Of a DNA stretch of 64,000 nt, positions 5,625 to 60,097 are shown one piece after another. Position numbers and translations under genes: made by a program. The number at the start of each line of letters is the position of its first letter. Position 1 is the first letter of the stretch. Below the pieces are notes generated by a model, which searched no databases, was not told where the DNA came from, and worked only from the letters and a program-made list of their open reading frames with translations. Origin of the DNA: Candidatus Poribacteria bacterium (lineage in GTDB: Bacteria > Poribacteria > WGA-4E > WGA-3G); assembly GCA_965208245.1 (NCBI GenBank), contig OZ242325.1, positions 2,581,878 through 2,645,877 of the forward strand, written 5' to 3'.

Positions 5625-6734
5625 ATGCAACAAAAACGTGACTATTATGATGTTCTGAACATCAGCAGAGATGCAGATGAAAACGAAATTAAAAAAGCAT
5701 ATAGAAAATTAGCAGTGAAATATCATCCAGATAAAAATCAAGGTGATAAAGACACCGAAGAAAAATTCAAAGAAGCTACCGAAGCTTACGACGTGTTGAG
5801 AACACCAGAAAAACGACAGCGATATGACCAATACGGACATGCAGGACTTGAAGGAACAGCATCTGGATACGGATATGGCGTAAACCTTGACGATATATTG
5901 AGCGAAGTGTTTGGAGACATGTTTGGTGGTTTTGGAAGAACAAGCAATAGACCCAAACAGGGACGTAGTTTGCAGTACAGTCTTCAAATCTCACTTGAGG
6001 AAGCATATTACGGAAAAGAGGAAACAATTGAAATACCACGAATTGAATCTTGTCATGAATGTAGTGGAAGCGGCGCTGAAAGAGGATCAACTATTGATGC
6101 ATGTCCACAGTGCTATGGACGCGGACAAGTAACACAATCACAAGGTTTCTTTACAATGTCCCGAACATGTCCACGATGTCAAGGTGAAGGTGAAATCATC
6201 AAGAATCCATGTAAAAACTGTGATGGACAAGGCAGGATAAGAGTCAAACGAGAACTCAAAATAAAAATTGATAAAGGTGTTGACAACGCTACTGAGTACC
6301 GAATGCGTGGCCAAGGTGAAGCAGGTACTTTAGGAGGCCCCCCCGGAGACCTACTAGTTGTAATCCACATAAAACCACACCAAACTTTCACCCGGGAGGG
6401 AAACGACCTATATACATCAGCAAGAATTTCTTTTATCCAAGCATCACTTGGAACTACTATTGAAGTTAAAAATATTGATGGCGTACAAGAATTAGATGTG
6501 CCAGCAGGAACACAATACGGAGAACAATTGCATGTAAGGGGTAAGGGAATGCCAAGATATAGAAGTTCTTATTACGGTGACCTTGTTGTTCAGATAGAGA
6601 TAGAAACACCAAGAAAACTCACGACACAGCAGAGAACACTGTTAGAACATTTTGATGACCCTGAGTATAAACCAGACGGATCCCAGAACAGTAGTTTCTG
6701 GGAAAAACTCTTTAGCAATCAAGATGATAAATAG
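5625..6734 (+). CDS. dnaJ: Molecular chaperone DnaJ
   Basis: J-domain with HPD (YHPDKN), a G/F region, and four CxxCxGxG zinc-finger repeats. Confidence 0.9.
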   Translation: MQQKRDYYDVLNISRDADENEIKKAYRKLAVKYHPDKNQGDKDTEEKFKEATEAYDVLRTPEKRQRYDQYGHAGLEGTASGYGYGVNLDDILSEVFGDMFGGFGRTSNRPKQGRSLQYSLQISLEEAYYGKEETIEIPRIESCHECSGSGAERGSTIDACPQCYGRGQVTQSQGFFTMSRTCPRCQGEGEIIKNPCKNCDGQGRIRVKRELKIKIDKGVDNATEYRMRGQGEAGTLGGPPGDLLVVIHIKPHQTFTREGNDLYTSARISFIQASLGTTIEVKNIDGVQELDVPAGTQYGEQLHVRGKGMPRYRSSYYGDLVVQIEIETPRKLTTQQRTLLEHFDDPEYKPDGSQNSSFWEKLFSNQDDK

Positions 6735-6884: not shown

Positions 6885-7769
6885 ATGAAATGGATAAAGA
6901 TTACAATAAAAATATCTCATGAAGCATCTGAAACCGTAGCAAATCAATTATTTGAAATGCAGTCACTCGGCGTTGAGATAAGTGAAGACAATAAAAATAA
7001 TACGCTATTAACCGCATATTTCCCTCTGGATGACAAAACAAATTCAAGAGTTAACGAACTGAAAACCTTCCTGTCAAAACTACCTGCATGGGGAATCCAA
7101 CCGAATCCAGCAGAAATTGAACTAAAAAGAATTAAATCAGAAAAATGGACAGAGGCATGGAAAGCAAATTTCACACCTCAAAAAGTAGGAGAAAAGATAC
7201 ACATTGTTCCAACATGGTATAAACAACCCATCAATGAATCGGACATCGTAATAAAAATTGATCCTGGAATGGCATTCGGCACAGGTTACCATCCAACAAC
7301 ACGATTAACTCTACAAATGTTGGAAAAGTCAATCAAACCAAATCAGATTGTAGCAGATGTAGGAACTGGATCAGGAATCTTGGCAATTGCCGCTATCAAA
7401 CTTGGGGCGAAACATAGTGACGCGATTGAACTTGACCCGAAAGCAATACCAATAGCAATCACCAATTTCGCCAATAACAGTGTCTCAAAAAAAATTACAT
7501 TACATGAAACAGATGGACTCCGGACTGTTGAACGAAAATACGATCTTATCGTCACAAATATCCTAACAAAAGCAATCATACCACTGATTCCATACTGTCG
7601 TGATAGATTAAATCCAGATGGGAGTCTAATCTTATCCGGTATTCTGGAATCTGAACAGACCACCGTTCAAGAAACGCTAAAAGAAAACAGATTAGAATGC
7701 GTTTCTGTCACGCGTCAAACTGAGGATGAACTCATGTGGATAGCAATGTTAGCGAGGCTCCTTTGCTAA
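6885..7769 (+). CDS. prmA: Ribosomal protein L11 methyltransferase
   Basis: PrmA fold with the SAM motif DVGTGSGILAIAA. Confidence 0.85.
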   Translation: MKWIKITIKISHEASETVANQLFEMQSLGVEISEDNKNNTLLTAYFPLDDKTNSRVNELKTFLSKLPAWGIQPNPAEIELKRIKSEKWTEAWKANFTPQKVGEKIHIVPTWYKQPINESDIVIKIDPGMAFGTGYHPTTRLTLQMLEKSIKPNQIVADVGTGSGILAIAAIKLGAKHSDAIELDPKAIPIAITNFANNSVSKKITLHETDGLRTVERKYDLIVTNILTKAIIPLIPYCRDRLNPDGSLILSGILESEQTTVQETLKENRLECVSVTRQTEDELMWIAMLARLLC

Positions 7770-21045: not shown

Positions 21046-21075
21046 AACCCGTAGGGGCGGGGTCTGCCCGCCCGT
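21046..21075. repeat. REP-B hairpin copy
   Basis: cccgtaggggcggggtctgcccgcccg. Confidence 0.8.
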
Positions 21076-42328: not shown

Positions 42329-44215
42329 TTATCTACCCCATTCGTTCTGTGATCTTTGACGACGTTGCAGGATGACTCTATCTCCATCGGTGATACCACT
42401 CTTGATGATCACTTCAGTTTCGTTTTGCATACCTGTCTCAATAGGCGTTTCAATACCTGCACTCCCATTACCTTTGTCTAACATGACGAACTTACCCTTA
42501 GTGACAGTAATTTGGGCTGGGACACCGTCCGCTTTTTTATCATCATTGATCAAAAGTGAAACAGTTGCAGGACCTGGCATAATACCGCGTTGTTTCGGAT
42601 CTAATTCTAAAGTTACACTACCATTCCCAACACTTTGGACTGTGCCGTAGAATATTTTATCGCTGATAGTCTGCATATCTACTTTTCTACCAACTTTGAA
42701 GGGAGATGTGTCCCCGACTTGAGTAACGACGGTAGCAGAATTTTTCGAAATAACCGCATCAATCGGAATCACTAAAACGTTCTTTTCTTCATACGTAATA
42801 ATGTCTACATCAGCACTCATTCCGGGTCGGATGTTACCAGAGGTGTCATTAACCTCAATCATCACCTCAAAAGAGATGATGTTATCCTGTTGCTGACCGC
42901 TTGGAGAAATCTCATACACATTACCTGTAAATTTCTGATTCTGAAATGCATCAATCTTGATATTCGCTGTTTGTCCTTCCTCAAGTCTTTCCATATCAAC
43001 TTCGTTTATAAAAGTTTTGACGACCATTTTTGAGAGATCGGCGATTGTCATTATCGGTGGACTTTGTGAAAATGCGGAACGGCCAGATGTAACAATCTCA
43101 CCTTCTTCTATGACGAGTTGTGTAACTGTGCCAGACATCGGTGCTTTAATGACAGTCCATTCAAGACGTTCCTCCTGATTCTTCAAAGTGCTCTGCCTAC
43201 GGAGAAGATTCGCATCCGCACTCACTTTTGATTGCTCAGTCAACAACTTCTCATTATTAATAGTCAGATTGAGTTCCTGTAACTGCGTAATTGCGTTATC
43301 CAAACGAATCTGACTCTCCTCTTCGGACTTTCTCCGCATCTTCTTTAGATTCTCTAAACTCAATTGCTGATATGATAGTTGGGATTGGCGAGTTTTTATG
43401 CCTGTTTCACGCGCAAGAATAGTACGATCTTGCGAGGCTATTGTTTTCTTTTGAGATTCTACACGTTTATTTGCATTCTTGTATTGTGAGTCAGCACTTA
43501 CGTAACGAGATTCCGCATCTTCCAATGTCTGTTTGGATACAAGCTCACTCTCGTAGAGAGACTTATTCCTATCAAACTCTGACTTGGCTGTATCTACGGA
43601 AACTTTAGCAGATGCAAGCGATGTTTCGTATTCTGCAAGCGTTAAATTAGCTTGATCAAGCGCAATATTCGCTTGTTCTAAAGCGATCTTATCCTGGTCT
43701 AACTCATTCATTGTTGCTTGTAGATTGGTTTCTGCATTGCTAACTTGTGTAAGAGTAGTTGCTTTCTCCGTTTCAAGATTAGCTCTGGCGATTTTTACTG
43801 CAGCTTCTTTCTGAGTAAGGTCACTGTTTAGACGTTCTTTCTTGAGTTCAATATTTAATTTTGCCTGCATCAATTGTGCTTCTGCAGCATCAACATCAGC
43901 CTTTGCTTGCTTCTGCTCCTCCTGATATATCTCTGGATCAAGCCTAACTAATATATCACCCTCTTTGACAAAGTCGCCGTCTTTGACAAGTAATTCAACG
44001 ACTTCACCCTCAACGTTTGATTTAACCTCCACATCAAGAAGAGGTTCAAGATTCCCAGTTGCACGGATCGTCATATGAAAATCATCACGTTTTGCAACTT
44101 CAATCTTCTGAGCAGGTCCTGTTGAGACACCGTTCTTACCACGGCTCAGAACAACCCAGCCTACCGCACCAATAAGTATGACGATGGTACCTACTGTAAT
44201 AATTAATTTTTTCAA
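42329..44215 (-). CDS. HlyD/MacA-like periplasmic adaptor (membrane fusion protein) with a very long coiled coil
   Basis: N-terminal TM anchor, biotinyl-lipoyl and beta-barrel segments, and a coiled-coil hairpin of about 250 aa. Confidence 0.7.
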   Translation of the reverse strand: MKKLIITVGTIVILIGAVGWVVLSRGKNGVSTGPAQKIEVAKRDDFHMTIRATGNLEPLLDVEVKSNVEGEVVELLVKDGDFVKEGDILVRLDPEIYQEEQKQAKADVDAAEAQLMQAKLNIELKKERLNSDLTQKEAAVKIARANLETEKATTLTQVSNAETNLQATMNELDQDKIALEQANIALDQANLTLAEYETSLASAKVSVDTAKSEFDRNKSLYESELVSKQTLEDAESRYVSADSQYKNANKRVESQKKTIASQDRTILARETGIKTRQSQLSYQQLSLENLKKMRRKSEEESQIRLDNAITQLQELNLTINNEKLLTEQSKVSADANLLRRQSTLKNQEERLEWTVIKAPMSGTVTQLVIEEGEIVTSGRSAFSQSPPIMTIADLSKMVVKTFINEVDMERLEEGQTANIKIDAFQNQKFTGNVYEISPSGQQQDNIISFEVMIEVNDTSGNIRPGMSADVDIITYEEKNVLVIPIDAVISKNSATVVTQVGDTSPFKVGRKVDMQTISDKIFYGTVQSVGNGSVTLELDPKQRGIMPGPATVSLLINDDKKADGVPAQITVTKGKFVMLDKGNGSAGIETPIETGMQNETEVIIKSGITDGDRVILQRRQRSQNEWGR

Positions 44216-44382
44216 AGTCCTAACCTCCTAATATTCAACGGTATACGTGATAACACTCACCTATCAGATATCCGTTTCTAGTAGGGCAATTCATTATCCC
44301 TCTCACCAAGATGCATCCTAATGTTATTTAGGTTTTACTATGCATTCAATCTCACTAGTGCTTTGTCAAGTTCCTTTTTGTG

Positions 44383-44463
44383 TGTCGGGTAGAGCGTAGC
44401 GAAACCCGACATGATAGTTTTAATCAACATGCGTCGGGTTTCGCTACGCTCTACCCGACCTAC
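44383..44463. mobile_element. MITE-like element variant nested inside an additional 17-bp inverted repeat (cactagtgctttgtca)
   Basis: gtcgggtagagcgtagcgaaacccgac ... gtcgggtttcgctacgctctacccgacctac, flanked by cactagtgctttgtcaag / ctgacaaagcactagtg. Confidence 0.7.
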
Positions 44464-44490
44464 GAAGAAAACCTGACAAAGCACTAGTGT

Positions 44491-45807
44491 TTAATCCGAT
44501 CGCAATGCTTCAACTGGCGTTAATTTGGCTGCCTTATGAGCAGGATACAGACCGAAAAACACACCGATACCAACCGATACAATCAAGGCAATGAACATTG
44601 TTTCAAATGAAACAACTGATGGCCAGTTGCTATCTTCCCATACAAATTTTGAAATGAGAACTGCTGTCCCTTTCCCCATAAAAATACCCAAGATTGACCC
44701 AAGAATACCACCGGCCAATGTTAAGACAGATGCTTCAATAAGAAACTGTGTGATGATATCATTGAAAGTTGCCCCGAGTGCTTTACGTAGTCCTATCTCC
44801 TGTGTCCGGTCAGTAACAGACACAAGCATGATATTCATTACACCAATCCCAGCAACCATCAACGCAATACCTGCAATACCACCCATCAAAGCTTTCATGA
44901 CCAAGCCAACTTTATTAGCAGTCGCTAATTCCTCGGTTGCTGTCCAATAGTTATATTCTTCACCTGTGTTCTTATGTATCCTACCTAATATCAATTTGGC
45001 TTCATCGATAACTTGAGGAATAGTATCAACATCAATGGCTTCTACACGTATCCGTTCTACATCTTGTCTTCCCTTAAACCGATCTTGTAGGGTCGTTATT
45101 GGTATAATGAACCGATCATCCCAACCTGTTGTATCCATCGCGTCACCCTTCTCTTCCATAACACCGATAACCCTAAGGCGCACTTCGTAGAGACCACTTC
45201 TTCCTCTCCAGAAAGATGGTCGTGATGCTTTGATTTCTTTCCCTATAGGGTCTTTATTGAGAAATACCTCTTCAGCAATTTTTGAGCCGATGACTGCAAC
45301 ACTACTTGCTGATTCTACTTCATGTTCATTAAAAAATCTACCCATTGAGGTATACCAGTTATAGGATCTATCATACCCGGCAGTTGACGCGACAATACGA
45401 GATTCCTTTTTTCGTCCTTTATAACTAACACGCCATCCTGGCATATCATCTTCAGCAATTACATTTATGACACCGCTTGCGTTCTTCCATATTTCAAAAG
45501 CGTCGTCAGTTTCCAGATGTTCGGCACGGTTTCTACGCCAACGACTTTTGCCTCGCACTGCTTCCCCTGCTGCCCGACTTAATGTGCCGGATTGTCTGTC
45601 CCAATCATCCTTATAAATCTCAATGATTTTTGTCCCACCAGTACGTTCAATCTCACGCAGTACCATTGCAGATGAACCGTCCCCCACAGAAACCATACTC
45701 ACTACAGAACCGACACCGACAATTATACCTAAAATGGTTAAACTTGAACGAAGTGGATTCCGCTTCAGACTAGTAATTCCTAAGATAATACATTCAAAAA
45801 GACTCAT
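44491..45807 (-). CDS. MacB/FtsX-like ABC transporter permease (periplasmic core domain plus 4 TM; no ATPase domain)
   Basis: N-terminal TM, MacB_PCD-like periplasmic domain, and the C-terminal FtsX 3-TM bundle. Confidence 0.75.
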   Translation of the reverse strand: MSLFECIILGITSLKRNPLRSSLTILGIIVGVGSVVSMVSVGDGSSAMVLREIERTGGTKIIEIYKDDWDRQSGTLSRAAGEAVRGKSRWRRNRAEHLETDDAFEIWKNASGVINVIAEDDMPGWRVSYKGRKKESRIVASTAGYDRSYNWYTSMGRFFNEHEVESASSVAVIGSKIAEEVFLNKDPIGKEIKASRPSFWRGRSGLYEVRLRVIGVMEEKGDAMDTTGWDDRFIIPITTLQDRFKGRQDVERIRVEAIDVDTIPQVIDEAKLILGRIHKNTGEEYNYWTATEELATANKVGLVMKALMGGIAGIALMVAGIGVMNIMLVSVTDRTQEIGLRKALGATFNDIITQFLIEASVLTLAGGILGSILGIFMGKGTAVLISKFVWEDSNWPSVVSFETMFIALIVSVGIGVFFGLYPAHKAAKLTPVEALRSD

Positions 45808-45818
45808 ACGCTCCCCGA

Positions 45819-47138
45819 TTACTCTATTCGTAACGCTTCAATTGGTGATAGTGAAGATGCCTTGAGTGCCGGATAGAGACCGAAAGATACTCCGATCAAT
45901 GCAGAGAAAGAAACAGAGATAAACACCCATTGCATGGAAATCACAGAAGGCCATTCAGGTACCATTTTAACGATATTCACAGCCAGAACTGACATCGCTT
46001 CCCCAGCAAGCATGCCTACACCAACACCTATTGCACCACCGATCAGACACATTGCAATTGATTCAATCAAAAACTGTAACATTATATCAAAACGTTTTGC
46101 CCCGAGTGCTTTCCGCAAACCGATCTCTCGGGTACGTTCAGTTACTGCAACCAACATCATGTTCATAATCCCTATGCCACCAACAAGCAGTGAAAATCCT
46201 GCAATACTCCCCAACGCAATTTTGATAACCTTACTAATCTTCTCTAATTGCGCCATACCTTCCCGCATATCCCTGAGATCAAAAAAATCATCCTGATTAT
46301 TGTGCCGTCTTCTGATTACATCCTTTACTTCTTCAATTGCCTTCGGTACATCCTCTACTGTGTTTGCATGTACAGATAGCATTGAAATGTAATCGTTGCC
46401 AGTGAAACGTTCTTGTACAGTTGTGAGCGGCATAAACACCATATCGTCAAGGTTCCATCCAAATCGTAGACTTCTACCTCGTGGATTCATGACACCAATA
46501 ACGGTAAATCGTTCAGCGATACGTGTTCGATCTCTTCTACCCCACCTGTCATATCTGTTGCCACCTCTACCGATCTTTATTTCCTTGTCTAAAGGCGATT
46601 CGTTACCGAAAAGATTCAATGCGACTTCAGTGCCGATAACACAAACTTTCTCTTTATTTTCAATATCTTCCGCTGAAATGAACCTACCTTCCTGAACTCC
46701 CCATTCCATTGCCTCGGAAAATGTATAATTTACCCCGTTATAGCCACTACGCACTTCAGCACCATCATTCGTCTGAATGAGAACGCCTCGCCATTCAGGT
46801 ATTCTAGGGACAGCAACTTTCACAGAGGGACATTCAGCCTCAATAGCTAAGACATCCTCATACTCAAAGTGCTCATTGCTTCTGTTTGGCATCCACCGAC
46901 TGCCAACACGTTTATAACTGCTGCGAAACATAGTGAACTGATTAACCCCACCCAACTTCTGAGCATCTTGTAATACAATCTCTTTAGCACCATCTCCTAT
47001 AGATATCATTGCAAGAACCGAAGCTACACCGATGATAATACCCAACATAGTGAGTAAAGACCTGAGTTTGTTACTTCGGATTGCAGTAAGTCCTACAAAG
47101 AACCCTTCAAATATGCACATTTCATGTCTCCAAATCAT
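45819..47138 (-). CDS. MacB/FtsX-like ABC transporter permease, paralog
   Basis: Same architecture as the downstream permease. Confidence 0.75.
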   Translation of the reverse strand: MIWRHEMCIFEGFFVGLTAIRSNKLRSLLTMLGIIIGVASVLAMISIGDGAKEIVLQDAQKLGGVNQFTMFRSSYKRVGSRWMPNRSNEHFEYEDVLAIEAECPSVKVAVPRIPEWRGVLIQTNDGAEVRSGYNGVNYTFSEAMEWGVQEGRFISAEDIENKEKVCVIGTEVALNLFGNESPLDKEIKIGRGGNRYDRWGRRDRTRIAERFTVIGVMNPRGRSLRFGWNLDDMVFMPLTTVQERFTGNDYISMLSVHANTVEDVPKAIEEVKDVIRRRHNNQDDFFDLRDMREGMAQLEKISKVIKIALGSIAGFSLLVGGIGIMNMMLVAVTERTREIGLRKALGAKRFDIMLQFLIESIAMCLIGGAIGVGVGMLAGEAMSVLAVNIVKMVPEWPSVISMQWVFISVSFSALIGVSFGLYPALKASSLSPIEALRIE

Positions 47139-47260
47139 TAAAAGAGAATACTTTTACACACAAGCTATTAGACAGAAATAAGCAGAAAAGGTTCGTCCTG
47201 ATAACAGGGAAAGACCAAAGTATGTGAGATTAGAATGTGTACTACTATGGTGAAATTTGA

Positions 47261-47302
47261 AAATAATTATACAAAAATAATTATACAAAAATAATTATAC
47301 AC
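47261..47302. repeat. 14-bp tandem repeat, 3 copies (aaataattatacaa)
   Basis: Exact tandem copies in an AT-rich intergenic region. Confidence 0.8.
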
Positions 47303-47820
47303 TCTCATCCCCAGGTAGGTGAGATTTCCTTATCGCACCGCTGTTGATGTAAAATTAATTCTATTTTCTACCGTAATTGTAATTGACGTAAATCTGTCAA
47401 ATTTGGTTTATTACAATTAAATTATAGGATTTACACATTTTGCTCGTTTTCAGAAGTTAAAGCGTTTAATGTGAATGCTAAACGCGCATTCACCAAGGGA
47501 AACCATTCATTGACCGTTCTTATGCAATATAGGTTTAATGCGTTGCAAATTCCAATCTTCAGCGTAAGTCCTGTCTATATAACACAAGTTGCAACCTATG
47601 TTCCATAATCTGTTTGATTGTGGAACAAGAACACAAATTGACAGTGGACGCTACAACTATTTGTTAAAAACTGGTGTTTACAAGTCAAAATCTTGTCCGT
47701 AGCAACTTGGGCTATAATAAGATTCGGGTTTCGTTCCTCAATCAAACTTATAGAATTAAGCTGGACAGAACAATATTGCCTGAGATGCAAAATAAAAAGA
47801 AACTTTTTGCAAAAATATTG

Positions 47821-47849
47821 TTGACAAAAATAATCATATATGATAAAAT
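47821..47849 (+). promoter_or_regulatory. Strong sigma70-type promoter with an extended -10 (TTGACA-17 nt-TGaTAAAAT)
   Basis: Consensus -35 with a 17-nt spacer, a TG extension and a TAAAAT -10, about 100 nt upstream of the poly-C ORF. Confidence 0.6.
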
Positions 47850-47965
47850 TTTTTTAGAATGAGAATAAATGCTCAAGTTTTTTTGCAATAAAAGGAAAAA
47901 GAACATACGAACATACCTAATTTGCTTTTAGTATTCAGTTTTGTATTTTTTTGAGCGGGGGAACA

Positions 47966-48364
47966 ATGAAAAGCCGAAAAAGTAACCATCATGCTGTCCA
48001 AATATATGCGCCAGATGTCTACTGTCTGATCGAAAATTGTGTAGGTGGCTTCGTTGATGCTTTTGCATCAACATCGGTTTTGAGTCCCCCCCCCCCCCCC
48101 CCCCTTCCAACGTCACCGTTAAATATAACAACACATAACGGTAAAAATACTTTAATAGTTAGTTCTGGTAGTGTCAACGCTACTATGCCAGCACGTCCAT
48201 TTTGGAACGTTGTGGGTTTTTGGGGATACCCATTACCCGCAAATGCTACGTTAACAAAAAACGCAGATGGCACGGTATGGACGCTAACATTACCCGGTAT
48301 CACTGATCTGGATAAAACCCAATGGGGGACATTAAAAGCTCAAGATAAGAAGGGCAGCATGTAA
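47966..48364 (+). CDS. Small hypothetical protein containing a 19-nt poly-C tract (encoding PPPPPP); candidate phase-variable gene
   Basis: The ORF is open through C19 at 48086-48104. Its C-terminus DKTQWGTLKAQDKK resembles the C-terminus of the downstream 1155-aa protein (TTQWGTLKRQY). Confidence 0.3.
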   Translation: MKSRKSNHHAVQIYAPDVYCLIENCVGGFVDAFASTSVLSPPPPPPLPTSPLNITTHNGKNTLIVSSGSVNATMPARPFWNVVGFWGYPLPANATLTKNADGTVWTLTLPGITDLDKTQWGTLKAQDKKGSM

Positions 48365-48374
48365 ATTCACAAAA

Positions 48375-48468
48375 GGTTTCGTAGGGGCGGGGTTCCCCCG
48401 CCCGCATAGTGACCAATAGGAACAAGGTTTCGTAGGGGCGGGGTTCCCCTGCCCGCATAGTGACCAAT
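48375..48468. repeat. REP-B hairpin, two tandem copies (ggtttcgtaggggcggggttccccc/tgcccgcatagtgaccaat)
   Basis: A 43-bp unit is directly repeated with 8 bp between the copies. Confidence 0.85.
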
Positions 48469-48735
48469 TAATAGTTCAAACTTCATTTCCGAAAATTGAA
48501 GGAAGTTATTATAATTCACAAGTTATTAAAGTTTACTACATTGAACTCATATTGAGTAACCTCTAAGTTTCGTTGAAAGTCGCCCGAAAATTTATCATTG
48601 CATATGTCAAGTTGCGAAACCCTAATCGGGTTTCTTTGAGCGTATCATAGCTTAGAGCGAGCCGTTGGAGGTTTTACTCAATATGACTTCATTTTAATCA
48701 AGCTGATTTGGCTTAATAAAAGAAGGAGAATATTC

Positions 48736-51700
48736 ATGACATTTTCAAGATATTTAGCACATCGGTACATTTTTCTGTTAGCGATTGCTTTAACATTTTG
48801 TTTTATTGAAATTTCTAGTGCTATAGCTAAACCGACCACCGCTGAAACTAGAGTCTTGTTCACGCAAACTCCGGGGTATATAGATTGGGGGAGGTTTGTC
48901 TGGATTCCGGCAAATACAACAGCTAACAGTATTGTTATCGATATTACATTTAGCGAAACTCCTAATCCAGCACCAAAAAAAGCAGACTTTATGCTGGGTG
49001 ACAAAACAGTAGAAGAACGTTATGCTGGCAAGCTTGGAAGTCAAGGAATAACAGTTGAAAAAATAGCAAATAGTCCTAAACACTATCGCCTACGGATATA
49101 TGGTAAAACGGGAGGGGCAATAAGTGCCCTACCACTACATACAAATCTTGTTTATAAAGGTGTCTATAAAGTGACTCTTGTCAAGAATAAATCTGAGTCA
49201 TTTATAGATTTGTCAGGAAAGTATATCGGTTCTATTCATAGGAGTGTCCAAACGAATAAAAGGACTGTAACGATTGATATTCGTTTTTTTGAACCTCCTA
49301 CGCGTGAGTTGACAAAGGGTGACTGGACAATTAACAATAGACAGGCACTCCCTGCTAATACCCAAATTTTAAAGATTGATAGTAAAAACTATCAAATTAA
49401 GTTTTTGGATACCACTGAAGTGCCGCTTACACTTGAGTTTCGTAACTATAGAGGATTTAATCTTGAAGATAATCAAGCAGGTTATCTAACAAACGAAAAA
49501 ATAGTTGTCGATTTTCGTAGTTTTTCAACTTTAAGACCTTTAGCATTTCAAACCACTGTATTTGAGGGGCGAACCTATTCATATGTCGAGGTTGAGATTT
49601 CTTTCAACGTACCACCTTATCCAACGCCAACAGAAGCAGATTTTTTATTTGATGGGAAACCTATTCCTCAACATCTGATAGACGACTATGAGGCGTATCT
49701 GGATACAAGTTATGGTGATAAGTTGTTTGCCATTGTTTTTGAAAATACAACAGTAGTACCGAAGACGCTTCAATTCAGGGACTTTCCACCTGTCAGTCTC
49801 ATCAAAAATGGTACTATAAGCAATACGACTGATGACGAAAAGCTTATTTCTGTTAAAGCCCAAGGTTTTGAAGTTTGGACTTCTGGAGGGACTACGTATC
49901 CTGCACAGGTCCACATTGATCTTACCTATAACCGTTCTGTGCAGAACAAACCGAAACTCACGGATTTTACAATAAATGGTGGACAACCACTATCCACATG
50001 GGGAAATAGAGTGGCGATCGTTCAAGGTGATTATGGGGATATGAGAATAGAGTGGGTTATTATATTTACGGGTACAGCCAGGATACCGAAGACTCTTGAG
50101 GCGCCCGGTTTCCATCCTGTTCATCTTGTTAATGATGTAGATCTACTTTTTGTGCCTTTGACTTATGTGGTACCTACAGAGTATGGTTCTCCAGTTGGTG
50201 CGGGCACGATTTTGACAAAACAATCTGGTGCACAGATACAACCGGGTGTGTATGGTATTCCTGCAAAGGATAAGATTGTCATTAATGAGATCGCGAATCT
50301 ATCCGGTGCATCTGATTGGATAGAACTGCTTAACATCAGTGATACTGGACTATCGCTTGACAAAACGGCGTTGTCTATCGTCACTGAATATAATGACGAG
50401 ACGGAGATTATCCGATTTCCCGATGTATCTATCCCTGCTGGTGGTATCCTCTTACTCGTGAATATGGATCCTGCAAACACTGATCTTGCGACGGGACATA
50501 ATGTGAAAGTGAATACACCAGATCACCCCCCTGATGCTGATGAGAATATCTCTTACCTCATCGTGAAAGGTGAAACGAACTACGGATTCACAAGTCCCGG
50601 GATTGACCTGCCAGACCATAACGATTGGATGCTTATCCTACGTAGCGGCACACCTTGGGATGTCAAAGATGGCAACGATATCTATAATACGGGATATCAG
50701 ATAGAGGATGTCGCTGGACCCGCATCTATCACTTTGGAGATAGATGAGAACGAGATTAATCAGCCTAGGGAGAAGAATAAGGATGGCACAGAAGGTGGAG
50801 ATCTCTGGTCAACTACAGTTTTTCCCTTAAACAGCCGCGAAGATACCGGTGATATGCTGCTAAGGTTCGATCGCACGCTCAATGAAGGCACAGTGCATGC
50901 ACGCGATGTTGATAAACACGGATTTGAAGTTCACAGTTTCAATCCTGCACCTTTCACAGGTATCGGCTACGACAGCGACATTACGGATGACGGGGGACAC
51001 CTCGGCACGCCAGGATATCCGAATGTTATGGCATCCAGCGTCTCCGATCTCAAGACAGGTCAGTTTATTGTCAGTGAGTTGATGTTAACAACAGATGGTG
51101 GCACGTATGCCCAGTGGATAGAGTTGCATAACACCTCTAAATCAGAAGCAATTAATTTAGAGGACCCTGATGGTGATGGCGACCTCACTGCTTGGAAAAT
51201 GACGATTGAGAACCATAATTCAGGCTCATGGAAACGTATCAGACGCAACTTGCACGTTGAAGTTGATCTAAGTGAATGGTTTCAGTATATTCCTCCCAAG
51301 CAGAAGGTGTTGATTGCTGCTTTCGCGGATCGGAATTCGGGGGCATCCGATTTTCCATCTACGCGGGTTGCGACGCTCTGGGAGACGCACAGACGTTCCT
51401 TCAGTATGATTAAACGCGGCAACCTCTTCTTAAATGCTTCAGGCGGATTCACTATCAAAATAACGGATAGTCAAGGCAACGTTTCTGACAGTGTCGGCAA
51501 CTTGGATGGAACAGCAGCTGATCCTGATGCAGATATAGGCAACGATGATCCTGTCGGTTTTGACTGGCCTACCGAGTTAACGGAAGACGGTCACCGCACA
51601 TCATTGATACGCCTGAAAAAACCCGATGGTAGTGCGCGCACTGGTATGCCAACACGTGATAGTTCAGGTGCTGCAACCGACAAGAAGGGATCCGTTCTTT

Positions 51701-52203
51701 CTCTTGGGGGAGATGAGAGCTCTGATACAGAAAGTTTTGCATGGAAACATGCAGCAGATATAAACCTTGACGACCTCGCCAAAATGACATGGTTCGGCAA
51801 TGAAAACGATATCAGCACACCGCTAAACCTAGAAAACACGGTGATGCCTGTCTTACTCTCATATTTCCGTCCGATTCTGGAAAATGGCGAAGTCCTTATT
51901 CAATGGACAACGGAAGCCGAACTCGACAACGCAGGATTTCATATCCTACGCAGTGAAACACGGGATGGACACTTCAAACGCATCAACACCCAGTTGATAC
52001 AAGGTGCCGGTTCAACAGCGGAACGACAGACTTATGAATGGATAGATACAACCGCAAAACCGGGAGTTGTCTATTACTATCAGATAGAGGATGTCTCTTT
52101 TTCAGGTGAACGCTATCGGTTAGCAACGACGAAACTAAAAGGATTCGTCTCTGCCAAGAACAAACTCACAACGCAATGGGGAACGTTAAAAAGACAATAT
52201 TAG
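48736..52203 (+). CDS. Large secreted surface protein with four N-terminal repeats of about 150 aa and two lamin-tail (LTD) domains
   Basis: Signal peptide plus AGGAG SD. Repeats are marked by VIDITFSETP / VTIDIRFFEPP / VEVEISFNVPP / VHIDLTYNRSV. The LTD signatures are IVINEIANLSGASDWIELLNISDTGLSL and FIVSELMLTTDGGTYAQWIELHNTS. Confidence 0.6.
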   Translation: MTFSRYLAHRYIFLLAIALTFCFIEISSAIAKPTTAETRVLFTQTPGYIDWGRFVWIPANTTANSIVIDITFSETPNPAPKKADFMLGDKTVEERYAGKLGSQGITVEKIANSPKHYRLRIYGKTGGAISALPLHTNLVYKGVYKVTLVKNKSESFIDLSGKYIGSIHRSVQTNKRTVTIDIRFFEPPTRELTKGDWTINNRQALPANTQILKIDSKNYQIKFLDTTEVPLTLEFRNYRGFNLEDNQAGYLTNEKIVVDFRSFSTLRPLAFQTTVFEGRTYSYVEVEISFNVPPYPTPTEADFLFDGKPIPQHLIDDYEAYLDTSYGDKLFAIVFENTTVVPKTLQFRDFPPVSLIKNGTISNTTDDEKLISVKAQGFEVWTSGGTTYPAQVHIDLTYNRSVQNKPKLTDFTINGGQPLSTWGNRVAIVQGDYGDMRIEWVIIFTGTARIPKTLEAPGFHPVHLVNDVDLLFVPLTYVVPTEYGSPVGAGTILTKQSGAQIQPGVYGIPAKDKIVINEIANLSGASDWIELLNISDTGLSLDKTALSIVTEYNDETEIIRFPDVSIPAGGILLLVNMDPANTDLATGHNVKVNTPDHPPDADENISYLIVKGETNYGFTSPGIDLPDHNDWMLILRSGTPWDVKDGNDIYNTGYQIEDVAGPASITLEIDENEINQPREKNKDGTEGGDLWSTTVFPLNSREDTGDMLLRFDRTLNEGTVHARDVDKHGFEVHSFNPAPFTGIGYDSDITDDGGHLGTPGYPNVMASSVSDLKTGQFIVSELMLTTDGGTYAQWIELHNTSKSEAINLEDPDGDGDLTAWKMTIENHNSGSWKRIRRNLHVEVDLSEWFQYIPPKQKVLIAAFADRNSGASDFPSTRVATLWETHRRSFSMIKRGNLFLNASGGFTIKITDSQGNVSDSVGNLDGTAADPDADIGNDDPVGFDWPTELTEDGHRTSLIRLKKPDGSARTGMPTRDSSGAATDKKGSVLSLGGDESSDTESFAWKHAADINLDDLAKMTWFGNENDISTPLNLENTVMPVLLSYFRPILENGEVLIQWTTEAELDNAGFHILRSETRDGHFKRINTQLIQGAGSTAERQTYEWIDTTAKPGVVYYYQIEDVSFSGERYRLATTKLKGFVSAKNKLTTQWGTLKRQY

Positions 52204-52400: not shown

Positions 52401-52633
52401 GGTCTTTCAGTTTAGACCCACGTAGCAAAAGTGTGTATATTTTTTGTATTTCACTATAATAACATTATTTCGTTCTTTTATTCTGTTATACCTTTCTTTC
52501 TGCCTTTTTCCACTAAAATCAAACCGACAAGGACTGTTTCTTTGAACGCCCACCCAATTTATTTGCAGGGCTATTCAGTTTTCGGTGATTTTAAAGAATT
52601 ACGCAACAAACGTTAATTTATTGAATTTATCCG

Positions 52634-52722
52634 TAGGTCGGGTAGAGCGAAGCGTCATTAAAATATTAACTGGCGACACGTTCACGTTTCTGTCGGGTTT
52701 CGCTACGCTCTACCCAAACTAC
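52634..52722. mobile_element. MITE-like palindromic element, full copy (core in inverted orientation)
   Basis: gtaggtcgggtagagcgaagcg ... cattaaaatattaactggcg ... cgctacgctctacccaaactac. Confidence 0.85.
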
Positions 52723-58383: not shown

Positions 58384-58471
58384 GGTGGGATGGCTGAGTG
58401 GACGAAGGCGGCGGTCTTGAAAACCGTTGTGGCGCAAGCCACCGTGGGTTCGAATCCTACTCCCACCGCCA
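58384..58471 (+). tRNA. tRNA-Ser (anticodon TGA), type II with a long variable arm, CCA encoded
   Basis: Acceptor GGTGGGA/TCCCACC, anticodon loop cTTGAaa, long variable arm, T-loop GTTCGAATC. Confidence 0.85.
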
Positions 58472-58479
58472 CACAATAT

Positions 58480-58567
58480 GGAGAGGTGCAGGAGTGGTTG
58501 AACTGGACTGCCTGCTAAGCAGTTATGGCGAAAGTCATCGTGGGTTCGAATCCCACCCTCTCCGCCA
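58480..58567 (+). tRNA. tRNA-Ser (anticodon GCT), CCA encoded
   Basis: Acceptor GGAGAGG/CCTCTCC, anticodon stem ACTGC/GCAGT, loop CTGCTAA. Confidence 0.85.
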
Positions 58568-58678
58568 TCATGTTTTATGTGATTTTCTAATACAGAAATA
58601 CGATATGAACAATATGTCCGGTCCAGTATCTTAAAACGCAAAATTAATCAGATTTTCATATAGTAATGTGTATATGAC

Positions 58679-58752
58679 GCGCCTGTAGCTCAGTGGATTA
58701 GAGCATCTGACTACGGATCAGAAGGCCGGGGGTTCGAATCCTCTCAGGCGCT
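58679..58752 (+). tRNA. tRNA-Arg (anticodon ACG)
   Basis: Acceptor GCGCCTG/CAGGCGC, D-arm TAGCTCAGTGG, anticodon stem TCTGA/TCAGA with loop CTACGGA. The T-stem has two G-U pairs. Confidence 0.75.
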
Positions 58753-58793
58753 TTAATACTTTATGAATAATCAAAACTAAGGTTTAAAGAACA

Positions 58794-59273
58794 GTGTCAA
58801 TCACTTTACCATCCAACCCAATCACAAAAGATGATGTCTATTGGATGGAAAAGGCACTTGAATTAGCACAACAAGCCACAGAGACAAATGAAGTACCAGT
58901 CGGTGCTGTTGTCATAAAGGAAGGAAACCTTGTTGCCACCGCACATAATCTTCGCGAACAGTTGAGAAATCCTGTTGCACACGCTGAAATGCTTGCAATT
59001 CAGTCAGCAGCGAAAAAACTCGATAATTGGCGTTTGACAGAAACAACATTATATGTTACGCTGGAACCATGTCCAATGTGTGCTGGTGCAATTATTCTTG
59101 CACGTATACCAAGGGTTGTCTTTGGTGCCACAGACCCAAAAAGTGGTGCCGCCGGATCACTTTACAACATTGTTCAAGATGAGAGACTTAATCATAAAGT
59201 AGAACTGCTAAGCGGTGTCTGTGCCGAAGAAAGTAGGGCACTTTTGCAAACTTTTTTTGAGAATAAACGTTAA
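58794..59273 (+). CDS. tadA: tRNA-specific adenosine deaminase
   Basis: CDA-fold zinc motifs HAEMLAI and PCPMCAGAI. Confidence 0.85.
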   Translation: MSITLPSNPITKDDVYWMEKALELAQQATETNEVPVGAVVIKEGNLVATAHNLREQLRNPVAHAEMLAIQSAAKKLDNWRLTETTLYVTLEPCPMCAGAIILARIPRVVFGATDPKSGAAGSLYNIVQDERLNHKVELLSGVCAEESRALLQTFFENKR

Positions 59274-59282
59274 AAAATATAA

Positions 59283-59370
59283 GGAGAGATGCAGGAGAGG
59301 TTGAACTGGACAGTCTCGAAAACTGTTGTGACGAAAGTCACCGTGGGTTCGAATCCCACTCTCTCCGCCA
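59283..59370 (+). tRNA. tRNA-Ser (anticodon CGA), CCA encoded
   Basis: Acceptor GGAGAGA/TCTCTCC, anticodon stem ACAGT/ACTGT, loop CTCGAAA. Confidence 0.85.
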
Positions 59371-59494
59371 CCTTGTTATGAAGATGTGTAACAGAGCAAG
59401 TTTAATCGTAAATCAGAAGCCTAAAATACATAGGGATTCCTGAAGCAATTATTGCTACAAACTTTTTGAATTGATCGGAGAATATGATATTGTT

Positions 59495-59567
59495 GGGGCA
59501 GTAGCTCAGTTGGGAGAGCGTATCCCTCGCACGGATGAGGTCACGGGTTCAAATCCCGTCTGCTCCA
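59495..59567 (+). tRNA. tRNA-Ala (anticodon CGC)
   Basis: Acceptor GGGGCAG/CTGCTCC with the G3:U70 alanine identity pair; anticodon loop CTCGCAC. Confidence 0.8.
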
Positions 59568-59583
59568 TACTATTGAACTTTAC

Positions 59584-59675
59584 GGAGAGATGCAGGAGAT
59601 GGCTGAACTGGCATGACTGGAAATCATGTGTGCTGTTATGCAGTACCGTGGGTTCGAATCCCACTCTCTCCGCCA
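59584..59675 (+). tRNA. tRNA-Ser (anticodon GGA), CCA encoded
   Basis: Acceptor GGAGAGA/TCTCTCC, anticodon stem CATGA/TCATG, loop CTGGAAA. Confidence 0.85.
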
Positions 59676-59869
59676 CCTTGTTATGAAAAATATCAGTTTT
59701 GCGTTATATGTAATGTATACTGTGCTAAACCGATAATTTCAAATATGTTAATAGTTTTACGACTTGGCTATGCTAAGTGGGGAGATAGCGGTGCCCTGTA
59801 TCTGCAATCCGCTATAGCAGAACTGAATTCCGAGTAGGCGGCCTGTCTTTGTGGGGTCTGTCCTAAGCA

Positions 59870-59985
59870 CGTGGCGTTGATAGTTGGGTCTTGAGCAACG
59901 AGAGGTTATTAAACCCCGTCAGATCCGGAAGGAAGCAGCGGTAGATAAGTTTTCTCGTGTGACGCAAGGCAACCTGATTTGAGCC
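59870..59985 (+). ncRNA. ffs: Signal recognition particle RNA (4.5S/ffs), conserved domain IV hairpin; ends approximate
   Basis: GTCAGATCCGGAAGGAAGCAGCGG at 59918-59941 matches the universally conserved SRP RNA helix-8 motif (GUCAGGUCCGGAAGGAAGCAGCC, GGAA tetraloop). It lies immediately upstream of dnaX, a common ffs position. Confidence 0.5.
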
Positions 59986-60097
59986 AACGACTTAAGCAAC
60001 GCCCGGAAAGGCTTGTCAACACTGGGTGCATAGCCATTTTCTCAGAAAAACCGATTCGTGAAGGGGATGGAATACACATCTATCTAAGGTTTTAAAC

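Follow-up and report, generated by a model that had tools for sequence, protein, structure and literature searches.

In the 64,000-nucleotide stretch of the Candidatus Poribacteria contig OZ242325.1 analysed here (the window), sequence comparison identifies a modular 5′ leader cassette at positions 47821–48227, one of many copies and specific to Candidatus Poribacteria. The parts follow one another in the same order in each copy: a promoter, a 5′ untranslated region (UTR), an upstream open reading frame (uORF), a poly-C tract, a C-rich block and an intrinsic terminator. We lean towards reading this cassette as a phase-variable, translation-coupled attenuator resembling that of the pil1 pilus locus of Streptococcus gallolyticus, homopolymer-based and modular. 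What is switched is then likely to be whether transcription reads through into the gene or genes behind the cassette, which here means a gene for an exported protein with a Lamin Tail Domain (LTD). A first-pass annotation of the window had taken the ORF that spans the tract, of 132 residues, to be a candidate contingency locus, perhaps encoding a fragment of a surface protein. The contingency idea is supported in spirit, with terminator read-through, rather than a small surface protein, as the thing that appears to be switched. The features of the window copy, all on the forward strand, are as follows.

47821–47849 (+): sigma-70 promoter, with the −35 box TTGACA at 47821–47826, a 17-nt spacer and an extended −10 element, TGaTAAAAT, at 47841–47849
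47856–47965 (+): leader 5′ UTR of ~110 nt, whose 3′ 40 nt (from 47928) are conserved across copies
47966–48085 (+): first part of the uORF, ATG and 40 codons (MKSRKSNHHAVQIYAPDVYCLIENCVGGFVDAFASTSVLS), in a frame free of stops in 14/14 DNA copies
48086–48104 (+): hypervariable poly-C tract, C19, read as PPPPPP and the first base of a Leu codon
48105–48155 (+): near-invariant C-rich, G-poor block (TTCCAACGTCACCGTTAAATATAACAACACATAACGG...), with frame-B TAA codons at 48120–48122 and 48126–48128
48188–48221 (+): predicted intrinsic terminator inside the uORF, with the hairpin CCAGCACGTCC-ATTTT-GGAACGTTGTGGG at 48188–48216 and TTTTT at 48217–48221
48228–48364 (+): tail of the ORF beyond the cassette homology, in frame with the uORF, with a C-terminal tag at 48311–48337 and the stop codon at 48362–48364
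48736–52203 (+): LTD gene, the first intact downstream gene, encoding 1155 residues with a signal peptide and a Lamin Tail Domain and ending NKLTTQWGTLKRQY

The cassette was recognised by comparison between loci. An initial protein search with the ORF returned an identical ORF on a 4.25-Mb contig together with three partial relatives, and alignment of these relatives as DNA showed ~300 nt of conservation with frame-breaking indels after the tract and unrelated genes downstream. Searching with a 21-mer taken from the best-conserved block added ten copies from three Candidatus Poribacteria assemblies, of which six share a single 5.9-Mb Poribacteria contig. A profile search with the ORF translations gave 52 clusters, and every named one belongs to Poribacteria. 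Altogether 17 copies were read as DNA (14 aligned, plus the three extra loci L021–L023) and ~60 ORF variants were found. The 4.25-Mb contig with the window's exact ORF has at least 8 of these variants (P0001, P0005–P0009, P0031, P0042, P0045). The nhmmer profile of the ~300-nt cassette matches exactly once per locus, including the window, where the match covers 47928–48227. Nucleotide identity among the leaders is 71–94%, with a median of 80%. Rfam gave nothing at the element, either for the whole window at gathering thresholds or for 47200–48800 at E ≤ 10, and a metagenome scan with a 19-mer from the invariant block gave 7 matches, all of them chance and none with poly-C.

The promoter agrees with the sigma-70 consensus at 11/12 positions, has an extended −10 element (the TG at 47841–47842 and the hexamer TAAAAT at 47844–47849) and is the top match of a 2-kb scan, confirming the near-consensus promoter that had been proposed. 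The transcription start is predicted near 47856. A promoter of the form TTGACA-17/18-TA(T/A)AAT lies at the equivalent position in most of the other copies, as seen in the alignment and also in L022.

The uORF and the poly-C tract are present in all 14 aligned copies, and the ATG and tract recur in L021–L023. Twelve copies begin with ATG, one with GTG and one with ATA, and a Shine–Dalgarno-like box (GGGAAC, AGGAAC or TGGAAA) stands 3–4 nt ahead of the start codon. Upstream of the tract the uORF frame is open in every one of the 14 copies, while each of the other two frames is open in 0/14 and contains 2–6 stops; in a column-shuffle test the openness of the frame has P = 0.0006. The indels within the uORF are of 15, 9 and 3 nt, all multiples of three. 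Single-base indels occur only beside the tract, and they are compensated: in L003 the loss of one base from the T-run before the tract is offset by a gain of one (CACCCG) after it, and further compensation is found in P0030 and P0029.

The tract itself is unusual for this DNA. It spans exactly 48086–48104 and is the sole homopolymer of 12 bases or more within the window, the next longest being A11, G8 and C7; at a C content of 21% about 1e-8 runs of C19 would be expected by chance in 64 kb. Its length differs widely among the 17 DNA copies (7, 10, 10, 10, 11, 11, 11, 12, 12, 13, 14, 14, 14, 14, 17, 17 and 19). On the 4.25-Mb contig, ORFs that are more than 90% identical imply C19, C19, C25, C21 and C21, corresponding to frames A, A, A, B and B after the tract, the ~C25 being derived from one ORF variant, P0005. 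One subfamily with leaders 91–94% identical holds all three frames (L002 and L003 in A, L004 in C, L011 in B). Similar differences are seen when ORF variants are compared as 90%-identity clusters drawn from different contigs. A single Pro is the sole difference between P0056 and P0072; P0044, P0064 and P0065 have 4, 5 and 4 prolines; P0052, P0066 and P0067 are in three different frames; and P0027 has lost 9 nt of the tract. Most of the differences between near-identical copies are in tract length and frame, which vary both among paralogues and among contigs from different samples. By these comparisons the tract is the fast-changing part of the cassette, and its length may change fast within populations. 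The earlier suggestion that tract length sets the downstream frame is borne out, with all three frames found among close copies. A variable repeat sets the frame of a uORF beside genes for exported proteins, with a presumed effect on their expression, as in a contingency locus. The count of 19 in the window should not be trusted to within 1–2 bases, since the 4.25-Mb contig that carries the identical ORF suggests a long-read assembly; the caution already voiced over the assembled length stands for the same reason. SPAdes-style contigs, which we take to be short-read, also differ in tract length (10, 10, 11, 11 and 12).

The conserved block after the tract has the consensus AACGTCACCGTTAAATATAACAACACATTACGA, with 0–1 mismatch in 21 nt, including at loci chosen without use of that 21-mer. 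The tract and the bases after it (taken over 78 nt) are 27–38% C and 8–13% G, and a variable stretch of ~40 nt separates the block from the terminator. In frame B there are TAA codons at +4 and +10 of the anchor in 14/14 copies, and this stop lies 65 nt ahead of the terminator stem in all of them. No stop interrupts frame A up to the end of the terminator in 14/14 copies, and the same holds for frame C in 9–10/14; a frame-C stop within the block, the TAA at 48136–48138, occurs only in the window copy. The post-tract pattern of stops has a shuffle P = 0.0014.

The terminator has a GC-rich hairpin of the form CCCGCACGTCC-ATTTT-GGATCGTTGCGGG followed by TTTTTGTTGTT. Hairpin and T-rich tail are found in every one of the 14 copies, with energies of −7 to −20 kcal/mol, and the same hairpin is the consensus hairpin given by RNAalifold. 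In the stem 95% of cells are paired against 33–42% for slid controls, and one stem pair (412/435) varies in a compensatory manner, being GC in 6 copies, AU in 4 and GU in 4. The terminator is located 222–255 nt into the uORF in the frames that read through it. At present 12/14 DNA copies run through the terminator and stop shortly past the U-run. The other two, L010 and L011, use frame B, whose stop comes 65 nt ahead of the terminator; their downstream genes are intact, and these predicted OFF copies are not decayed.

These features can be assembled into a mechanism. The strong sigma-70 promoter would drive a transcript opening with the 40-codon uORF, which would enter the slippage-prone poly-C tract, read as polyproline in any frame, and the frame beyond would be set by tract length modulo 3. 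In frame B the ribosome would halt at the conserved TAA 65 nt short of the terminator, so that the hairpin could form and the downstream gene would be OFF. In frame A, and in most copies also in frame C, the ribosome would translate through the hairpin and U-run, blocking the hairpin and probably also blocking the loading of Rho on the C-rich block. RNA polymerase would then read into the downstream gene or genes for exported proteins (ON). With C19 the window copy would be in frame A and hence ON; C20 would place it in frame C, where its private TAA at 48136–48138 would turn it OFF, and C21 would place it in frame B, again OFF. The original first downstream gene of the window copy would apparently have been deleted down to its last ~45 codons, leaving the LTD gene as the next intact one. 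Both the activity of the predicted terminator and the control of read-through by the reading frame are deduced here from the arrangement of the sequence.

Several observations weigh against this mechanism. The uORF has a weak Shine–Dalgarno-like box, placed close to its ATG, while the downstream genes have strong AGGAGG-type sites. The diversity at the three codon positions of the uORF is 0.29/0.20/0.26, without a protein-like signature, indicating that the amino acid sequence of the uORF is not what is conserved; that the uORF is translated at all is something that we infer. The near-invariant block is more conserved than the model needs. The window terminator, at −10.7 kcal/mol, is among the weakest, and ~515 nt, including two hairpins like repetitive extragenic palindromes (REP), lie between it and the start of the LTD gene. 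Other copies have a conserved −10-like TATAAT ~75 nt past the terminator, which could be an independent promoter of the downstream gene. Frame-C stops are found only in copies that are not in frame C (4/7 vs 0/7; Fisher one-sided P ~0.035), and so the frames may persist for long periods. Finally, several of the assemblies are probably long-read, and their long tracts, and hence their frames, may be miscalled.

The polyproline encoded by the tract offers a different explanation, which we regard as improbable though compatible with the attenuator model and able to act jointly with it. Here the cassette would be an attenuator that senses polyproline stalling (elongation factor P (EF-P), prolyl-tRNA) rather than a switch at the level of DNA. 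A stall in the PPP...P run would uncouple translation from transcription and let the in-ORF terminator or Rho act; tract length would tune the strength of the stall, and read-through would report translation capacity. Poly-C does encode polyproline in every frame, the DNA copies having 2–6 prolines and P0005 up to 8, and the C-rich, G-poor stretch past the tract is like a Rho loading site. Proline-codon leader ORFs, mgtL and mgtP, reportedly control mgtA in Salmonella. The succession of PPPPPP and an in-ORF terminator also resembles a synthetic PPPPPP-pyrL reporter (PMC5021804). On this explanation, however, there is no account of why two TAA codons are conserved in exactly one frame while two frames are kept open through the terminator, nor of why close relatives occupy all three frames. 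L010 has only 2 prolines, P0027 has one against four in its near-identical cluster mates P0062 and P0063, and nothing obvious ties the downstream genes to proline or to the state of translation. We suggest that polyproline stalling and Rho loading are possible extra layers, as rivals or as add-ons to the frame-dependent attenuator.

The genes behind the cassette bear on what it regulates. In 11/13 of the other tabulated DNA copies the first gene after it encodes a signal-peptide protein with a C-terminal tag, and such genes are often two in tandem. In L010 and L013 the cassette is ahead of lipoprotein genes and in L023 ahead of a gene for a 2365-residue cadherin/LRR protein. The downstream proteins have signal peptides or lipoboxes, and their domains include LamG_3, NPCBM, DUF4960, LTD, cadherin/LRR and caspase. 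The LamG proteins of different subfamilies share 25–33% amino acid identity and the remaining downstream proteins are unrelated. Since the leaders, with their median nucleotide identity of 80%, are far more conserved than the proteins behind them, we regard the cassette as a conserved portable module. By analogy the LTD gene is the candidate regulated gene in the window.

The tag, K(L/T)xTTWGx(I/L)K (typically KLxTTWGxIK), is found 2–8 residues from the C-terminus of most of the downstream exported proteins. It is carried by 20 ORFs in the window and in L002–L012 and L022, on proteins with domains as varied as LamG_3, NPCBM, DUF4960 and LTD. Within the window it is on two ORFs only, the LTD protein (at ~52170–52200) and the tail of the 132-residue ORF. 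Its synonymous codons vary freely, and from this we take it to be selected at the amino acid level. A shared C-terminal tag had been suggested from the likeness of the two window proteins, and the 20 ORFs beside copies of the element bear this out. No match to it was found in Pfam or NCBIfam, and literature searches found nothing on a TTWGxIK motif. It may be a sorting or anchoring signal.

The variety of downstream genes also bears on a reading of the cassette as a stand-alone small RNA or small-protein unit, co-duplicated with neighbours that have promoters of their own and with tract variation that is neutral or affects only its own product. We think this quite unlikely. The unit is self-contained from promoter to terminator (~365 nt), many copies have the conserved −10-like TATAAT between terminator and downstream gene, and L001 is followed by an array of clustered regularly interspaced short palindromic repeats (CRISPR) and L021 by a 71-residue ORF and a Rep3 gene on the opposite strand. 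Yet there is little conserved structure (−17 kcal/mol over ~400 nt), and Rfam has no match at E ≤ 10. A normal small gene stops before its terminator, whereas 12/14 of the ORFs here run through it, and beyond the tract close copies encode different products according to their frame. The cassette moreover fronts non-homologous genes, with 80% nucleotide identity in the leader as against 25–33% amino acid identity, or none, beyond it.

The 132-residue ORF of the window needs separate treatment. That an ORF spans C19 was correct: it is open between the conserved ATG (47966) and the stop (48362–48364), the ORF listing extending its start to a TTG at 47951. Also correct was the claimed likeness of its C-terminus to that of the LTD protein, as its tail DKTQWGTLKAQ (DKTQWGTLK at 48311–48337) and the LTD end TTQWGTLKRQY are identical in 8/9 residues. 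The first 87 codons, however, are the conserved leader, made up of the uORF, the poly-C tract and the in-ORF terminator, which is also found upstream of unrelated genes for exported proteins. Other copies, including P0005 from the contig with the window's exact ORF, continue as GFCCYI... after the cassette, and the tail of the window ORF shares just the 9-residue tag with any protein examined. These ~45 last codons look like the 3′ remnant of a deleted tag-bearing gene, fused in frame past the U-run, which would make the ORF a chimera; since only the tag is recognisable in the tail, this origin is one that we infer. In P0056 and P0072 (ENA contigs of 4–5 kb) the distal leader ORF, comprising the tract, block and terminator region, is joined in frame to a TnpB-like OrfB_Zn_ribbon C-terminus.

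It is accordingly very unlikely that the ORF is a genuine small or fragmentary surface-protein gene switched by its own C-tract, as had been proposed. It is open, has a strong promoter and the family tag at its end, and occurs in identical or near-identical form twice on the 4.25-Mb contig (P0001, P0009). Against this, it has no signal peptide and no significant Pfam or NCBIfam domain match; residues 1–87 are the shared leader, which is continued in other frames in homologues; an intrinsic terminator lies within it; and its tail shares only the tag. The use of three frames after the tract, together with the lack of a third-position excess, argues that it is not an ordinary protein-coding gene. 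It is similarly far-fetched that the invariant block, alone or together with the tract, serves a dedicated antitermination factor as its recruitment or pause site, with the uORF secondary. Such a site would resemble ops and RfaH, or the UpxY NusG paralogues, known from leaders of surface-structure operons. The block is the most conserved segment and sits in a long leader before surface-protein genes, as do ops and JUMPstart, but it has no sequence similarity to ops, and the stop-codon pattern and the tract would be left unexplained.

Other candidate identities were considered and rejected. For a miniature inverted-repeat transposable element or other transposon, terminal inverted repeats were looked for by eye, with no formal test, and none was seen. 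For the template and variable repeat pair of a diversity-generating retroelement, ~100 nt or more of near-identical repeat would be expected; only a 34-nt stretch matches the 3′ end of the LTD gene, at 76% identity, and the similarity of the ORF to LTD is at the level of the peptide, with different synonymous codons. A type I toxin–antitoxin or antisense pair was rejected as the sole antisense promoter-like site, 48177–48149, is private to the window copy and not conserved in the alignment. A highly structured non-coding RNA or riboswitch leader is not indicated by the RNAalifold consensus of only −17 kcal/mol over ~400 nt, support for RNA structure being found only at the terminator and at a 5-bp helix within the uORF. 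A promoter-spacer role for the tract, in the manner of Bordetella fim, was rejected: the tract is 236 nt downstream of the −10 box, and −35/−10-like hexamers flanking it fit one copy only (L010).

Some further features of the surroundings were noted. Between the ORF stop and the LTD gene there are two 45-nt direct repeats (48373–48417 and 48424–48468), each holding the hairpin GGGGCGGGG-TTCC-CCCGCCC; because this is also found at 13764–13783 and 21054–21073, we regard it as a dispersed REP-like element. A second dispersed repeat family, of the GTAGGTCGGGTAGAGCGAAGCGAAACCCGAC type, is found at ~44338–44487 and 52633–52722 and in L005 at ~450–490. It gives rise to the artefactual ORFs 'VERSETR' and 'GFATLYPT', and one copy is inserted in the leader 5′ UTR of L005. 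The 5′ UTR of the LTD gene contains, just before the ribosome-binding site, a 28-nt inverted repeat (48532–48559/48674–48701, 82% complementary, 114 nt between the arms) that encloses a hairpin, GAAACCC-TAAT-CGGGTTTC, and could be a further regulatory structure. Directly upstream of the cassette and divergent from it is an operon (42329–47138, −) whose translations read as a coiled-coil membrane-fusion-like protein (628 residues) and two MacB/FtsX-like permeases (438 and 439 residues). Six tRNA genes (58384–59672) are followed by a large-type signal recognition particle RNA (59768–60033). In L001, a metagenomic copy (6431–6655 and 7113–7214), a small CRISPR array (repeat CTTTTAATCGCACCAGTTTGGAATAGAAA) begins ~130 nt past the terminator and precedes cas genes (Cas8a-like CXXC_CXXC and DevR/Cas7), and a tandem array of the 8-nt GGAAGGAT lies at L001 6641–6820.

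If the attenuator reading is right, it has wider consequences. Contingency loci would extend beyond host-adapted pathogens, and the independent construction of the same logic from a C homopolymer in a distant uncultured phylum, with the cassette reused ahead of many unrelated exported carbohydrate-binding and adhesion proteins, would make it a general design rather than a curiosity. Hypothetical proteins of 50–140 residues at such sites should then be annotated as leader ORFs, and differences in tract length treated as biologically meaningful. The cassette would also be a natural test case for the interplay of polyproline stalling, Rho and intrinsic termination, and a previously undescribed C-terminal tag is defined for the exported proteins of Poribacteria. 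More tentatively, and with considerable doubt, one may imagine a genome-wide plug-in system, in which one cassette in at least 6–8 copies per genome switches a different tagged exported lectin or adhesin at each site independently, possibly with sensitivity to EF-P, proline or Rho. Surfaces would then vary combinatorially in a phylum that is uncultured and not known for pathogens, by a switch both stochastic and physiologically tunable.

Poly-G and poly-C contingency tracts are well known from genes of Neisseria, Campylobacter and Helicobacter and from the poly-C stretch of the Bordetella fim promoter, and in N. meningitidis siaD a poly-C tract is combined with Rho-dependent polarity. The cassette shares with such homopolymer loci a G/C run of at least 7 bases, the association with surface proteins and a frame that changes with length. 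In those loci the tract is in the structural gene or a promoter spacer, whereas here it is in a dedicated uORF 236 nt past the −10 box; the tracts are also unusually long (10–25), and the hosts are uncultured and not known as pathogens. Literature searches found nothing on phase variation in Poribacteria.

The principle that a ribosome may suppress a terminator is established in other systems. In E. coli, terminators work at ~0.9 efficiency when the stop codon lies more than 30 bp ahead of them, while the ribosome represses those that come a few bp after the stop or towards the end of a coding region (PMC4824070). In pyrBI the leader ORF pyrL runs across the hairpin of the attenuator, and a ribosome that follows closely keeps transcription from terminating, as that system is cited in PMC5021804 and PMC4824070. 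The likeness to our cassette is that the leader ORF runs through the hairpin and the ribosome would block termination; the difference is that pyrBI depends on UTP-dependent pausing of the polymerase and has a fixed frame, whereas here the frame varies and proline stalling possibly contributes. In the PPPPPP-pyrL terminator reporter the loss of EF-P lowers expression 26-fold (PMC5021804). Like that reporter and mgtL/mgtP, the cassette has proline codons upstream of a terminator or Rho site within the same ORF or leader, but there a fixed sequence senses physiology, whereas here the proline run is a hypermutable DNA tract that varies among copies.

The closest parallel is with the pil1 and pil3 loci of S. 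gallolyticus (Danne et al. 2014), where a GCAGA repeat in a leader-peptide gene shifts the frame; a stop 33–39 bp before the terminator gives low expression (OFF), while the longer peptides end inside the terminator or past it and the ribosome keeps the hairpin from forming, giving high expression (PMC3894217). It was only for these pilus loci that our literature searches found experimental support for phase variation by a leader peptide and attenuator. The same elements are present in the sequence of the cassette: a repeat-bearing leader ORF, a terminator, one frame that stops early and two that run longer. In both systems the leader ORF is promoter-proximal and contains a simple sequence repeat, the terminator precedes genes for surface structures, one frame stops early (33–39 bp there, 65 nt here) and there is more than one locus per genome. 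The two have no sequence relationship and come from different phyla, and the repeat is a C homopolymer encoding polyproline here and a GCAGA pentamer there. Here, too, there are at least 6–8 copies per genome before unrelated exported proteins, there is an extra near-invariant block, and the system is known from sequence alone. By this analogy the cassette is a homopolymer-based, multi-copy form of a mechanism whose one other known example is streptococcal.

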